A stretch of DNA of 64,000 nucleotides from a phage. The position numbers and the translations under genes are program-made. The notes under the pieces are model-generated. The model was not told the DNA's origin. It ran no database searches and worked only from the letters and a program-made list of their open reading frames with translations. Below are positions 9,384-14,031 of this stretch, piece by piece; position 1 is the first letter of the stretch; every line of letters starts with the position of its first letter. Location of the stretch: sequence record PZ445443.1. The stretch is one strand, 5' to 3'.

Positions 9384-9749
9384 ATGGAACAAATGAACGA
9401 TCAAGCGTCGGTTGCGATGAACGAGCAAGAACAACCTCAAGAATTTTTCTTAGGGTTAAGTAAAGATCAAGTGTCTCTTCTACTAGTGCTTTCTTCTTTC
9501 ATGGGAAGACTTCAGGAGCTCACACAACAACCAGAGGCTGAACAATTATTTCAAGCTCTGCGTGAAGAAGAAAAATATCGTCGTTTGGACTATGCCTTAG
9601 GTTGGGTAGCTCAACAACGAGATATGCTGATGGCCCTCTCTGGGACCACAAGTTTTGCAATGGGGCTGTTGGCTCAAGTTCAGGACAAATTAATTCAAGC
9701 AGGGTTTGCACACACGGCAAACACTAACGAAGAACAAGGAGACAAATAA
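9384..9749 (+). CDS. hypothetical protein
   Basis: ATG after CGGAGA RBS; Gln/Glu-rich. Confidence 0.5.
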   Translation: MEQMNDQASVAMNEQEQPQEFFLGLSKDQVSLLLVLSSFMGRLQELTQQPEAEQLFQALREEEKYRRLDYALGWVAQQRDMLMALSGTTSFAMGLLAQVQDKLIQAGFAHTANTNEEQGDK

Positions 9750-11020
9750 TGAGCGTTATTCAACAATTCGCTAACCCGATGAATCCGCGTGAAACTGTTT
9801 TACTGGCTCACGGCATGATTAAACGTGTCAGCATCAAGCCTATCAAAGGTGCTGATCCTACAACAGGTATTAAAACCACTGTGTGGCAAGGTAAGAAAAT
9901 TGAATCCAGCCACACCATCTCTTTACTGATTTCTGAACTGGATTCCTCTGATAACCTGCTTCAAGGTGGTGAAGAAGTCTGGATCAGTATGGGTGATAAA
10001 CTGCTTAAACCGGGTCATCAAGACTCTGTCTCTGTTAAAATTGATGACAAGTGGGAAACCGTAACACCGGGATGGATCGTAAATATCCCTTTGAAGGCAA
10101 ACGAGCATAACGGTAAGACCTATTACAAAGGCTCACTGGCTAAGATGGTCAAGCTGGGTGCAGGAGAGGCTCCAGCAGCGACTCAGCAGCAAAAACAGCA
10201 ACAAGGTGCACAATCACAAGGCCAGAAGCAGAAACCTCAGCAGAATGCCAATCAGGACGTTTTACGCATCTATGGTGATGTGACTCAGATTGTTGGCAAC
10301 GTGGTTACTGTTAATGACCACAAGATTGGCGAAGGTGCTATGGTTGTCACTGATGAGCAGCTTAAAGACCTGGTGGTAGGTGGTCGTGTTGCAGCCATTG
10401 TTGACAAAGACACCGGAAACATTATCAGTGGTTTCAAAGCCTATCCACCTAAGGCAGAGAACGGCACCCAAGGCTCTGGTGGCAAGCGTAAATCCTCTTA
10501 CGACCCTATTGGTGTGGAGACGGGACATAGCATCAATGCGTTGCAAATCATCCTAGATCGCGGGTTTAAGGTGGACGACCCACTAAGCGTGGCTAAAACA
10601 CTGCACGTAGTCACCATTGAGCTTAAGAAAGAGTATGCTCAAGCCACCAACCGAACTGAAGATGAAGTAGGTGCCAGTGTCGGTAATGCGGTGTTGAACG
10701 CTTGTCGCCGTATTGACAAGAAAACGAAAGTTGATGATTTTGCAGCGGCAATTACTGCAGAAGCAAAAGATGTCTTGACTAATCTGGCTGAGCCGTTGTA
10801 CGATTGGATCAAGAACGGTGCTGGGTCCACTGACCATCAAGAACCTCAAGCTGCCAAACAGGAAGCTGCTTCACAGCAAAATACTGTAGACGCTCCTCCT
10901 GTAAATGACGAGGAAGATGACCCGATGGGTCAGAATCCGGCGCAGTATGACTTCTGTGATGACATACCTTTCGCTCCGGTAGGTTTGCAATATGGCAAAA
11001 GTAGAATCCACGCATTGTAA
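9749..11020 (+). CDS. putative ssDNA-binding protein
   Basis: Gln/Gly-rich low-complexity linker ([20 protein letters not shown]) and acidic tail with DFCDDIPF resembling the bacterial SSB DDDIPF tip; sits in the replication module; inference only. Confidence 0.35.
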
Positions 11021-11615
11021 GAGGTGCATCAAGTGCGGAGAGGTGAAAGACCTCTCCGAGTTCTACAAACACCAAAAGATGTCTGACGGTCATCTTAATA
11101 AGTGCAAAGAGTGTTGCAAGAAGGCCAGTAGGGAGGCTGACCAATTTTCCTACGACTCTTCAGAAAAAGGTGTAATACGCGTGCTGTACAAGGCTCAAAA
11201 GTGCAACAGCAAGCAAAGAGGTCACCCGCCTCCGACTTACACCAAAAAAGAGTTTAAGGAGTGGCTATACCTAAACGGTTACAAAGAGTTGTATGATCAA
11301 TGGGTAGCCAGCGGATACGACAAAAGGAAAAAGCCTTCTTGTGACAGGATAGATGATTTCAAAGGGTACTCTTTTGATAATATCCGTTTAACGACTTGGG
11401 GAGAAAATAAAGACAAGCAGACAGAGGATATTCTGTTGCATAGAAGCACCAGCGGTAGACGGTGTAAAAATGTAAGGAGGCTGGACATGAATGGCAACGT
11501 TCTTAAAGAATGGGTGTCCCACAACTCTTGTAGAAGAGAAACCGGAATATGTGTTGATTACTACATTCATGAAAAAATTCCAGCCCCAGATGGATACCTC
11601 TATGAATACTTTTAG
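10992..11615 (+). CDS. putative HNH-family endonuclease
   Basis: N-terminal Cys cluster (CKRCIKCG...CKECC) and C-terminal [23 protein letters not shown] resembling HNH_3-type motifs. Confidence 0.4.
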
Positions 11616-11677: not shown

Positions 11678-12094
11678 ATGACATTAGAAGATATCATTGT
11701 TAAGCCTGAGAACTATGACCAATACAACCTGTCAACTCAATCTGTAGACCTTGGATGCGCCACGGTCAGTGCGTGGCTGGTTAACGGAAAAGAGCTGGAT
11801 AAATGCTTAGAAGCTCACATGTCTATTAACAAGTTTCTGGATGAAAATACTCACTGGCTTGATGGTGCAGGCGTATATGCTTCATGGTTGGAGAGTATGG
11901 GATTCGACTACCAATCTGAAGAGGGGTGGTGGAGCTATTTAGCTATCTGTCCAGAGACGCTACAATGCTTCATGAAATATTCTGAAGATTTGGAGTACCG
12001 GGCGGTGGTTGATAGTGCTATTGCCCGTTATAGCCGTAAACCTTTTTCCCACGACATTAAAACTGTGGAAGAATTTGTTGAAGTTTTCTGTTGA
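11678..12094 (+). CDS. hypothetical protein
   Basis: ATG after AAGGAGA RBS. Confidence 0.55.
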   Translation: MTLEDIIVKPENYDQYNLSTQSVDLGCATVSAWLVNGKELDKCLEAHMSINKFLDENTHWLDGAGVYASWLESMGFDYQSEEGWWSYLAICPETLQCFMKYSEDLEYRAVVDSAIARYSRKPFSHDIKTVEEFVEVFC

Positions 12095-12190: not shown

Positions 12191-12388
12191 ATGATTTATC
12201 GAATCCGTGTAAGAGAAGATGCACCAGGCTGTTACTTTGACTGGCGTGGGTGGTGGTTTCTCCACCCAATGGATGGACTCACAGATAGAATGCTGGATGC
12301 TGCCCTTTACACAGATACCGACATAGAATATAATCTCTATCTGAAGGACGGTATAGATAACGGCCTGTTTGAAGCAATTCCTGCGTAA
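12191..12388 (+). CDS. hypothetical protein
   Basis: ATG after AGGAGG RBS. Confidence 0.5.
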   Translation: MIYRIRVREDAPGCYFDWRGWWFLHPMDGLTDRMLDAALYTDTDIEYNLYLKDGIDNGLFEAIPA

Positions 12389-12456: not shown

Positions 12457-12882
12457 ATGATCTATGAAATGCCAAAACTGATTCGTGACGATGCCCAAAA
12501 CGCTCACACCATTATTATGGGCAAACGCATGGATATTATTTGTCATAAAGATTTCTGGGAAGGAAGTTACTTCACAGAGTATTTTGGTAAACTGGACAAT
12601 GGTCTGCTGATCCAGTTCTACACCGATGCGGAAAACAACATTACCTGGGAGTTCGAAACTGAAGATGTCCATAAACTTTTCACCTTCCTCGGTATTAAGG
12701 TTAAGGCCAAGTTTGAAGAAGGTGAGTGCGACGATTGTGGATTTTATGAGGTAACAGATTTCTACCTTCCTAGCGGTAAGAACCTTTACTATGAAAGCCA
12801 CTTCGGTAACTCCAATATGCCACAGTGCTGGACTGAGTTTTTTGAAATTGCGGAAGAGGAGCTGGCTTACCGTGATTATTGA
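12457..12882 (+). CDS. hypothetical protein
   Basis: ATG after CGGAGAA RBS; directly upstream of and overlapping the macrodomain gene. Confidence 0.5.
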   Translation: MIYEMPKLIRDDAQNAHTIIMGKRMDIICHKDFWEGSYFTEYFGKLDNGLLIQFYTDAENNITWEFETEDVHKLFTFLGIKVKAKFEEGECDDCGFYEVTDFYLPSGKNLYYESHFGNSNMPQCWTEFFEIAEEELAYRDY

Positions 12883-13330
12883 TACTGTGGAGGGAGATTT
12901 AATCTCCCTTTTTAAGATCGGTGCTGGTCACCTGATCCACGGTTGTAACTGCTTCCACACAATGGGCAAGGGTATAGCAAAACAGATTGCCCGTGAGTTT
13001 CCTCAAGCACTGTCAGCCGACAAAGAGACTAGATACGGTTGCCTAAGTAAACTGGGTGCGTTCTCCCGATGGGAGCACTTATCTCCGATAGGTATTGTCT
13101 ACGGAATCAATCTATATACCCAGTTCTACCCAGGACCTAATGCTGAGTATTTCTCAATCCTGAAAGGCTTTGAGCTAGTCAATGAAGTATTCAGCGGATC
13201 GACTTTACCATTCTACATCCCTAAGATCGGGTGCGGCATAGGCGGTTTGAAGTGGGAACACGTAGAGGACGTTATCAACCTTGCCACTTTCGACATAGAT
13301 ATTGTCGTGGTGGAGTACAAAAAGTGTTGA
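12872..13330 (+). CDS. macrodomain protein, DarG/TARG1-like ADP-ribosyl hydrolase
   Basis: GDLISLFKIGAGHLIHGCNCFHTMGKGIAKQIAREFP and PKIGCGIGGLKWEHVED match the DarG macrodomain segments [25 protein letters not shown] and PPLGVGNGGLDWEDVE; start set at GTG 12872 after GAGGAG. Confidence 0.8.
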   Translation: MIIDTVEGDLISLFKIGAGHLIHGCNCFHTMGKGIAKQIAREFPQALSADKETRYGCLSKLGAFSRWEHLSPIGIVYGINLYTQFYPGPNAEYFSILKGFELVNEVFSGSTLPFYIPKIGCGIGGLKWEHVEDVINLATFDIDIVVVEYKKC

Positions 13331-13355
13331 CGACCATCTTCTGAGGTGATATAGT
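13327..13355 (+). promoter_or_regulatory. sigma70-like promoter
   Basis: TTGACG, 17 bp spacer, TATAGT. Confidence 0.45.
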
Positions 13356-13384
13356 TTCCACGACAACTAAGAGAGGAGAGCACT

Positions 13385-13555
13385 GTGGAGACTAAAATCT
13401 TAATTCTTGCTGTGGTAGATACAACCGAAGGAGCTATATTCGAATCTGCAGGAGGGTATTTCTACCTACCATACGGAAAAAGAACTTCCGAGCCAAGTAA
13501 AGATTCAATCCTCAAAGTGTTCCCGTGTGCTTTCTGGCTGGAGATTTTGGTATAA
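13385..13555 (+). CDS. hypothetical small protein (56 aa)
   Basis: GTG start after AGAGGAGAG RBS, downstream of promoter 13327; below the 60 aa ORF-track cutoff. Confidence 0.35.
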   Translation: METKILILAVVDTTEGAIFESAGGYFYLPYGKRTSEPSKDSILKVFPCAFWLEILV

Positions 13556-13581
13556 GATTGCAGAGGATTTGGGAGAGAATT

Positions 13582-13776
13582 ATGAGAAACAAGAAAGAAC
13601 TTTACTCTGGTGAGTGGATCAACGATCAACAGGTGGGAGAGGTAACCTGCTTCCGATGTTTTACCAGGTACAATCTTAAAACTGCACCAAAAAGTGTTCC
13701 AAAGACTGACGGTTACTACATAAAAGAACCTCATTGCCCAAAATGTAAATGCCGATTGTACTGGAGCAATCTGTAA
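13582..13776 (+). CDS. zinc-ribbon protein
   Basis: CFRCF...CPKCKC Cys pairs; ATG after GGGAGAG RBS. Confidence 0.45.
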   Translation: MRNKKELYSGEWINDQQVGEVTCFRCFTRYNLKTAPKSVPKTDGYYIKEPHCPKCKCRLYWSNL

Positions 13777-13780
13777 GAGG

Positions 13781-13808
13781 TTGACATCTGAAAACTGCAG
13801 TGTATAAT
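13781..13808 (+). promoter_or_regulatory. sigma70-like promoter
   Basis: TTGACA, 16 bp spacer, TATAAT with TG extension. Confidence 0.6.
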
Positions 13809-13839: not shown

Positions 13840-14031
13840 ATGGTAATTTTTAACCGGGATGGTATCATAGTTAGACAGCACCCGTTCCTTGAATACTATC
13901 AAATTGAGCAATGGTGCTACGGGGATTGCAGTCACTCCTATGGGCAAAGTTGGGGATATCGTACAGTTTTTGAATCCACAGACCTTGACAAAGTAAAACA
14001 GAAAGTTTTAGAACTTCTTAACAACAAGTGA
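13840..14031 (+). CDS. hypothetical protein
   Basis: ORF downstream of promoter 13781. Confidence 0.5.
   Translation: MVIFNRDGIIVRQHPFLEYYQIEQWCYGDCSHSYGQSWGYRTVFESTDLDKVKQKVLELLNNK

Follow-up and report, generated by a model that had tools for sequence, protein, structure and literature searches.

A macrodomain gene of the T4 Tk.4/AdfM type in a Vequintavirus genome, a probable eraser of DarT2-made ADP-ribosylation

Described phage anti-DarT factors and the macrodomain gene of PZ445443.1

Phage macrodomain proteins have been linked to escape from the DarTG2 system. In phage T4, a transposon screen returned tk.4 as the single DarTG2-conditional gene, its clean knockout proved to be DarTG2-sensitive, and it received the new name adfM (for anti-DarT factor Macrodomain; HIDEN-SEQ preprint, bioRxiv 10.1101/2025.11.20.689424). 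PhiKZ gp104, also named AdfM, was shown to remove DarT2-made thymidine-linked ADP-ribose from DNA in vitro, with the N23A variant serving as the catalytic-mutant control in the gel-shift de-ADP-ribosylation assay, and PhiKZ that has lost it is restricted by DarTG2 (Cell Rep 2026, PMC13309987). This work concerns a stand-alone macrodomain gene, encoding a protein of 152 amino acids (aa), at positions 12872-13330 of the phage record PZ445443.1. The window, namely, the whole stretch of DNA analyzed, comprises 64,000 nucleotides (nt), and its 132 open reading frames (ORFs) were scanned. The gene quite probably encodes an orphan ADP-ribosyl-glycohydrolase, or "eraser," of the T4 Tk.4/AdfM type that counters DarTG2. 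This anti-DarT idea is not novel, as the kind has already been described as T4-type AdfM. The protein also resembles AdfN (T4 30.3, a NADAR protein directed against DarTG1) in being a phage orphan copy of the eraser domain of an antitoxin; however, AdfN has an unrelated fold and acts on guanine-linked ADP-ribose made by DarT1, not on the thymine-linked form made by DarT2 (PMC11825919).

With nom, naswa, APECc02, HdK5, and other Vequintavirus (rV5-like) myophages of Escherichia coli, the window shares 99% identity. T4 Tk.4 is a full-length homologue of the 152-aa protein (39% identity, BLASTP E 9e-41, coverage 1-150), and a tblastn comparison with tk.4 returned 39% identity over 99% of the query, which amounts to homology at the level of orthology. 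Both proteins are of the same size and stand-alone, have the motifs HGCNC, MG.G.A, NLYTQF.PGPN, and P.IG.GIG in common, and are encoded by lytic E. coli myophages, although 61% of the residues differ and the rV5-type gene is not located between vs and tk. This tk.4 slot between vs and tk is occupied by the nearest homologue outside the genus, that of Krischvirus GEC-3S, with 69.5% identity.

Fold and class are supported by sequence and structure alike. The two segments on which the initial annotation had based the macrodomain assignment (GDL..NC..MGKGIA.Q....P and P.IG.G.GGL.WE.VE) are real and align to the Mycobacterium tuberculosis DarG macrodomain 5m3i, which is also the best sequence match in the PDB (phmmer E 1.4e-6; family profile E 2.9e-17). 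The protein matches Pfam Macro (PF01661) with 28 bits, above the gathering cut-off of 22 (E 2.2e-6), and PHROG 335 with an E value of 1.7e-58. The AlphaFold2 (AF2) model, built from an alignment of 57 family sequences, has a predicted local distance difference test score (pLDDT) of 96.9 and a predicted template modeling score (pTM) of 0.91, and the protein possesses the three alpha/beta/alpha layers of the macro fold together with the two Gly-rich loops that bind ADP-ribose. A Foldseek search against the PDB ranked TARG1, Poa1p, DarG (M. tuberculosis and Thermus aquaticus), Thermosipho DarTG, BT1257, and SCO6735 first, which places the protein in the ALC1-like (TARG1/DarG/Poa1p) class; in both structure and sequence, it is nearer to TARG1, DarG, Poa1p, SCO6735, and BT1257 than to MacroD, the viral X-domain, macroH2A, or PARG. 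Depending on the record, the gene is already annotated as "macro domain protein," "T4-like protein with Macro domain," or "phosphatase," the last of which is the label of the family in PHROG 335 and RefSeq.

The family was detected by tblastn in 2,770 of 50,697 phage records; when clustered at 50% identity, it amounts to 20,070 clusters at a threshold of E<=1e-3 and to 1,385 at E<=1e-30. Given this wide distribution, a correct functional label affects many genomes. Comparison with Vequintavirus orthologues gave ratios of nonsynonymous to synonymous substitution rates (dN/dS) of 0.09-0.14, indicating strong purifying selection. One family member, P0089, is part of a phage replication module and has no DarT nearby.

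Active site and relation to DarG

Among 235 family sequences, little or no variation is seen at H23, N26, N80, T83, Q84, G120, and G122, with position 84 being Gln in 232 and H23 being kept in 229 of them. The conserved Gly-rich catalytic loops (M31-G-x-G34-I-A36 and P117-x-I-G120-C-G122-I-G-G125) were intact in the alignment, as was N26, which aligns to DarG N22 and PhiKZ AdfM N23. In profile alignments, Q84 is located opposite lysines that are known or presumed to be catalytic, namely, the first Lys of the DarG motif PTKK (T. aquaticus K80), K84 of the TARG1 motif ITKK, and K78 of the PhiKZ AdfM motif PTKD. Bacteroides BT1257 also has Gln at this position, and T4 Tk.4 possesses the same NLYTQF motif as the 152-aa protein, so that the genetically validated T4 AdfM is also devoid of the catalytic lysine.

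A precedent for such a site is SCO6735 of Streptomyces coelicolor, which has Gln85 at the position of the catalytic Lys. It was shown that SCO6735 efficiently hydrolyzes thymidine-linked ADP-ribose on single-stranded DNA (ssDNA) and protects against DarT and that the Q85A substitution abolishes activity, and a water-mediated mechanism was proposed (PMC9411070). Q84 corresponds to this glutamine in residue identity, and its invariance together with the missing catalytic lysine suggests an SCO6735-like, lysine-independent, and water-mediated mechanism. SCO6735 (PDB 5e3b) and BT1257 (PDB 2fg1/2afc) are likewise stand-alone proteins of ~150-180 aa, but share ~20-23% identity with the phage protein and are encoded by bacterial chromosomal genome-protecting genes and not by phage counter-defence genes. 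SCO6735 has a long, Lys-rich mobile loop that encloses ssDNA, and the loop that follows Q84 (F-x-P-G-P-N) is short in the phage protein's family.

PhiKZ gp104, the chimallivirus AdfM, is also a phage-encoded stand-alone macrodomain, the N23 of which has its equivalent in N26. It differs in being imported into the phage nucleus and in retaining the DarG-like lysine, K78, at the position of Gln84. Judged by sequence, the name AdfM covers two separate lineages or acquisitions, namely, a PhiKZ type with lysine and a T4/rV5 type with glutamine.

The description of the protein as "DarG-type" in the initial annotation holds for the Gly-rich motifs, which are shared, but not for the active site, since the catalytic Lys (DarG K80, TARG1 K84) is replaced by an invariant Gln. 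Features in common with DarG2 of DarTG2 (PDB 5m3i, 5m31, 7omu) are the Gly-rich loops, the equivalent of N22, and the predicted substrate, thymidine-linked ADP-ribose on ssDNA. The identity as a DarG antitoxin was nevertheless rejected, as the C-terminal DarT-binding domain, a DarT, and the catalytic Lys (Lys80 in DarG, Gln84 here) are all missing. The NCBIfam model antitoxin_DarG (NF048014) was matched with 45.3 bits (E 6.9e-12), as compared to a cut-off of 250 bits, and only over positions 3-141 of its 338 positions, with the protein ending at 152 aa; the PADLOC DarG match (E 1.1e-12) was also limited to the N-terminal macro part. None of the 132 window ORFs matched a PADLOC DarT model at E<=1e-5, in agreement with the initial view that the gene stands alone without an adjacent DarT, and no Pfam or PADLOC match was obtained for the genes flanking the macrodomain gene.

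Proposed mechanism and competing explanations

In the mechanism proposed here, the substrate, the expression timing, and the phenotype of the 152-aa protein are predictions. The macrodomain would probably be expressed from host-type promoters, among small genes beside the replication module. Host DarT2 would ADP-ribosylate thymidines in single-stranded phage DNA and thereby block replication. The macrodomain would bind the ADP-ribose through its two Gly-rich loops and N26 and, by analogy with its homologues, cleave the thymine-ribose bond, free ADP-ribose, and restore the template. As a C-terminal DarT-binding domain is missing, its action would be catalytic only and directed at what the toxin has produced.

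The anti-DarT interpretation of the initial annotation remains the best-supported reading by virtue of the homology to T4 AdfM, and it is supported by the orthology-level nature of this homology and by the conserved SCO6735-like active site. That the protein helps to reverse the ADP-ribosylation of nucleic-acid bases is supported independently, although indirectly, by Macro-NADAR fusions, which were found for 3 of the 150 best family representatives (P0177, P0118, and P0215; TIGR02464 / DS32_2 NADAR), since NADAR is an eraser of the guanine-linked ADP-ribose made by DarT1 (PMC11825919). Each of these three proteins is a candidate for a dual eraser that acts on thymine-linked as well as guanine-linked ADP-ribose, directed against DarT2 and DarT1.

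Several observations weigh against this interpretation. The evidence on T4 AdfM consists of genetics only, with hydrolysis being called "likely," and a library of the Vequintavirinae phage Bas54 was made in the same study, with no DarTG2 challenge reported (bioRxiv 10.1101/2025.11.20.689424). In the literature searched, no experiment on this protein or any Vequintavirus macrodomain was found. PhiKZ gp104, for which the activity is biochemically proven, is a member of the Lys-type lineage and shares only 19% identity with the 152-aa protein. The bacterial family member P0051 is located among housekeeping genes with no DarT nearby, a context that resembles that of the SCO6735-type "genome protector" genes and indicates that the ties of the family to conflict are not exclusive. 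Lastly, H23 corresponds to H23 of yeast Poa1p and T30 aligns to its S30, which are the residues mutated in PDB 6lfs and 6lft; this similarity to Poa1p accounts for the "phosphatase" label of the databases and leaves room for other ADP-ribose substrates.

It is rather unlikely that the protein is a general or alternative hydrolase of ADP-ribose derivatives for which DarT2 is not the main target. Such an enzyme might act as a Poa1p-like ADP-ribose-1''-phosphate phosphatase, deacetylate O-acetyl-ADP-ribose, or remove ADP-ribose from RNA or protein, and would serve to counter other NAD+-based defences (e.g., RNA-targeting ADP-ribosyltransferase toxins) or to clear toxic metabolites. The label in PHROG 335 and RefSeq and the two residues in common with Poa1p agree with this possibility, as do the activity of SCO6735 and TARG1 on protein substrates (PMC9411070) and the very large size of the family with its bacterial housekeeping contexts. 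However, the sole known phenotype in the family is DarTG2-specific, with tk.4 being the single significant match in the screen. Furthermore, the position of Poa1p F152 (mutated in PDB 6lfu) is Gly or Ala in the family, Poa1p has Ser in place of the invariant Q84, and the Macro-NADAR fusions point to the ADP-ribosylation of nucleic-acid bases.

T4, the carrier of Tk.4, also encodes ADP-ribosyltransferases (Alt, ModA, and ModB). Large myoviruses show an enrichment of macrodomains as well as of ADP-ribosyltransferases (PMC9503650), as might be expected if the macrodomain reversed or tuned ADP-ribosylation by the phage's own enzymes and thus regulated host take-over rather than serving counter-defence. 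Such a role is considered improbable, since the 25 Pfam families listed across the 132 ORFs (64 kb of the ~137-kb genome) included no ADP-ribosyltransferase and the T4 tk.4 mutant shows no defect on K-12, failing only on DarTG2 hosts. There is also little likelihood that the protein is a catalytically dead ADP-ribose binder, acting as a sponge or reader or inhibiting DarT by direct binding. This idea draws on the presence of Q84 in place of DarG K80 and TARG1 K84 and on the finding that inactive mutants of SCO6735, DarG, and TARG1 still inhibit DarT in vitro by interaction (PMC9411070). Yet nearly the entire family has this Gln, SCO6735 requires it for efficient hydrolysis, with the Q85A mutant being dead, and the Gly-rich loops and N26 are intact in the phage protein.

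If the favored assignment as an anti-DarTG2 eraser is correct, AdfM, newly described for T4 and the chimalliviruses, would also occur in the Vequintavirinae, which find use in phage therapy and in the biocontrol of O157, and Vequintavirinae phages are predicted to resist DarTG2. The existence of two lineages under the name AdfM matters for mechanism, inhibitor design, and annotation, and the databases still refer to a "phosphatase." What is new here is the lysine-free site in common with T4 AdfM, the cassette-like allelic exchange within the genus, and the recurring Zn-ribbon neighbor, the latter two of which are detailed below.

Locus, allelic exchange, and neighboring genes

The window encodes replication and nucleotide-metabolism functions, namely, a family A DNA polymerase, a DnaB-like helicase, a ligase, NrdAB, NrdD, ThyX, and PhoH, and the macrodomain gene is located 3' of the DNA polymerase gene, among small ORFs. 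At least 80% of the 2.8-kb neighborhood is present in 115 of the 119 matching phage records. Evidence for exchange comes from the comparison with phage JeffSchatz (Bas55): the flanks are 95-100% identical at the nt level, whereas identity falls to 63-88% per 60-nt window in the segment ~12760-13330 and rises again immediately 3' of the macrodomain stop codon. The macrodomain ORF itself has 78% nt and 83% aa identity to its JeffSchatz counterpart, with a dS of 1.23 and a dN/dS of 0.09. From these sequence patterns, the gene has evidently been swapped as a cassette between deeply diverged alleles within the genus.

The ORF is intact as initially annotated, with 152 codons from GTG 12872 to TGA 13330. 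This start is favored over the in-frame ATG 12791 because homologues align from residue 1 (MIVKYIKGD in T4 Tk.4, MIIDT... in Krischvirus) and because GenBank calls the same ORF in the close relative HdK5 (HdK5_00038, "macro domain protein"). ATG 12791 was rejected, as it would entail a non-conserved extension of 27 aa and a 92-nt overlap with the upstream gene, and the antisense ORFs at 13205-13383 were dismissed because they are short and face a conserved coding frame. From its GTG start on, the macrodomain gene shares 11 nt with the end of the upstream gene, including the TGA stop codon of the latter, an arrangement kept in HdK5, JeffSchatz, and isim. Since the Shine-Dalgarno-like motif (Table 1) is embedded in the 3'-terminal part of the upstream gene, the two genes may be translationally coupled. 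Sigma-70-like sites in the macrodomain region are modestly enriched (22 vs 13.2 +/- 4.1 in shuffles). A perfect match to the sigma-70 consensus (TTGACA-16-TATAAT, 12/12) was noted at 13781-13808 on the plus strand, just 3' of the Zn-ribbon gene and 5' of the ORF at 13840; it fits transcription of the small-gene block by the host RNA polymerase, i.e., early in infection. Judged by these signals, early expression of the macrodomain region is inferred.

Table 1. Positions of features in the window and in loci of other phages (L numbers)
Feature	Locus	Position	Strand	Details
HNH/endonuclease VII-like ORF, 207 aa	Window	10992-11615	+	phrog_1035, E 7e-41
Sigma-70-like promoter candidate	Window	12306-12334	+	TTTACA-17-TATAAT, 11/12; consensus match only; 5' of the 12457-13330 gene pair
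Upstream gene, 141 aa	Window	12457-12882	+	phrog_8157; no Pfam/PADLOC match; overlaps macrodomain start
Shine-Dalgarno-like motif GAGGAG	Window	12856-12861	+	Read from the sequence; 10 nt 5' of GTG 12872
Stand-alone macrodomain gene, 152 aa	Window	12872-13330	+	T4 Tk.4/AdfM type, ALC1-like; GTG start, TGA stop
56-aa ORF	Window	13385-13555	+	phrog_15268; between macrodomain and Zn-ribbon genes
Zn-ribbon gene, 64 aa	Window	13582-13776	+	PF23903 Phage_zn_bind_2, Pfam E 8.1e-23
PF23903 gene	L003	3446-3640
PF23903 gene	L004	2501-2641
PF23903 gene	L005	2471-2689
PF23903 gene	L011	2938-3123
PF23903 gene	L012	2980-3195
Acb1 homologue, g102	L005 (Yersinia phage fHe-Yen9-04)	2014-2460		PF23474, E 2.6e-17
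Acb1 homologue, gene 00109	L012 (Erwinia phage pEa_SNUABM_47)	2523-2969		PF23474, E 4.7e-16

The initial annotation had suggested that the genes at 12457-12882 and 13385-13776 might form an anti-defence islet with the macrodomain gene. The latter interval in fact contains two genes in different frames (Table 1), and the islet stands in part, since the Zn-ribbon gene is linked to the macrodomain gene by association in Krischvirus, whereas the upstream gene is not linked there. The Krischvirus homologue of the upstream gene is ~9 kb from the macrodomain gene, on account of which a functional link was rejected; in the window, the two genes are probably co-transcribed. Of the loci compared, only those of Vequintavirus have the 56-aa ORF, with no match in the Krischvirus, Jiaodavirus, or T4 loci.

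In contrast to the upstream gene, the Zn-ribbon gene recurs beside the macrodomain gene. In Krischvirus GEC-3S, a 78%-identical homologue is found directly 3' of the macrodomain gene and overlaps it, an adjacency that suggests that both were probably exchanged as a block, and in Jiaodavirus a homologue is located ~1 kb 3' of the macrodomain gene. T4 Tk.3, Tk.2, and Tk.1 were rejected as Zn-ribbon homologues, as they gave no BLASTP match and belong to other Pfam families (DUF7202, DUF7438). No macrodomain is encoded beside the homologue in the Eneladusvirus and Mydovirus loci. In the jumbo Eneladusvirus phages, the PF23903 gene is directly 3' of a homologue of Acb1, a factor against the cyclic-oligonucleotide-based antiphage signaling system (CBASS), and in the Klebsiella Mydovirus it follows a gene for a protein of 152 aa with a weak HD_4 match (23.6 bits vs the Pfam cut-off of 27.2). 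The small enzyme gene directly 5' of the PF23903 gene thus differs between the unrelated phage groups examined; in Krischvirus it is the macrodomain gene, from which the PF23903 gene is one ORF away in Vequintavirus. In KpV477, the Zn-ribbon homologue is unannotated.

This recurrence suggests that the Zn-ribbon gene may serve as an anchor, or as a partner gene, in a hot spot of anti-defence functions. A wider scenario, which is regarded as doubtful, is that the rV5/T4 Tk.4-type proteins constitute a Gln-type lineage of their own, very large in size, by which the ADP-ribosylation of nucleic acids is erased, and that the PF23903 companion marks a hot spot of hydrolase swapping. As this lineage is devoid of the DarG/TARG1 lysine, its substrate range may be broader than, or differ from, that of DarG. 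Under this scenario, the PF23903 gene could provide either a partner protein or an additional anti-defence factor, and the small hydrolases exchanged at the hot spot, such as the macrodomain, Acb1, and HD proteins, would be ones that destroy the products or signals of defence systems.

The Eneladusvirus Acb1 homologues are located inside a cluster of NAMPT, Sir2, and Nudix genes of NAD metabolism. Those of fHe-Yen9-04 and pEa_SNUABM_47 are annotated as "RNA ligase" and "putative structural protein," and in view of their PF23474 matches this public annotation is probably wrong.

Among the records matching this E. coli Vequintavirus region, 16 are labeled "Campylobacter phage" with C. jejuni as host, e.g., MG065635.1, MG065655.1, and MG065654.1, and phage C12, with 96% identity, is among the matches listed. 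The host labels of these records look doubtful.

Further upstream, the HNH ORF is situated between the gene at 9749-11020 and position 11678. It is missing in HdK5, JeffSchatz, and isim, in which the protein encoded upstream has 408 aa, as compared to 423 aa here, and the annotations of nom, EmilHeitz, CM1, and I29 include endonuclease features at this locus. The ORF probably encodes a mobile homing endonuclease that has rewritten the 3' end of its neighbor.

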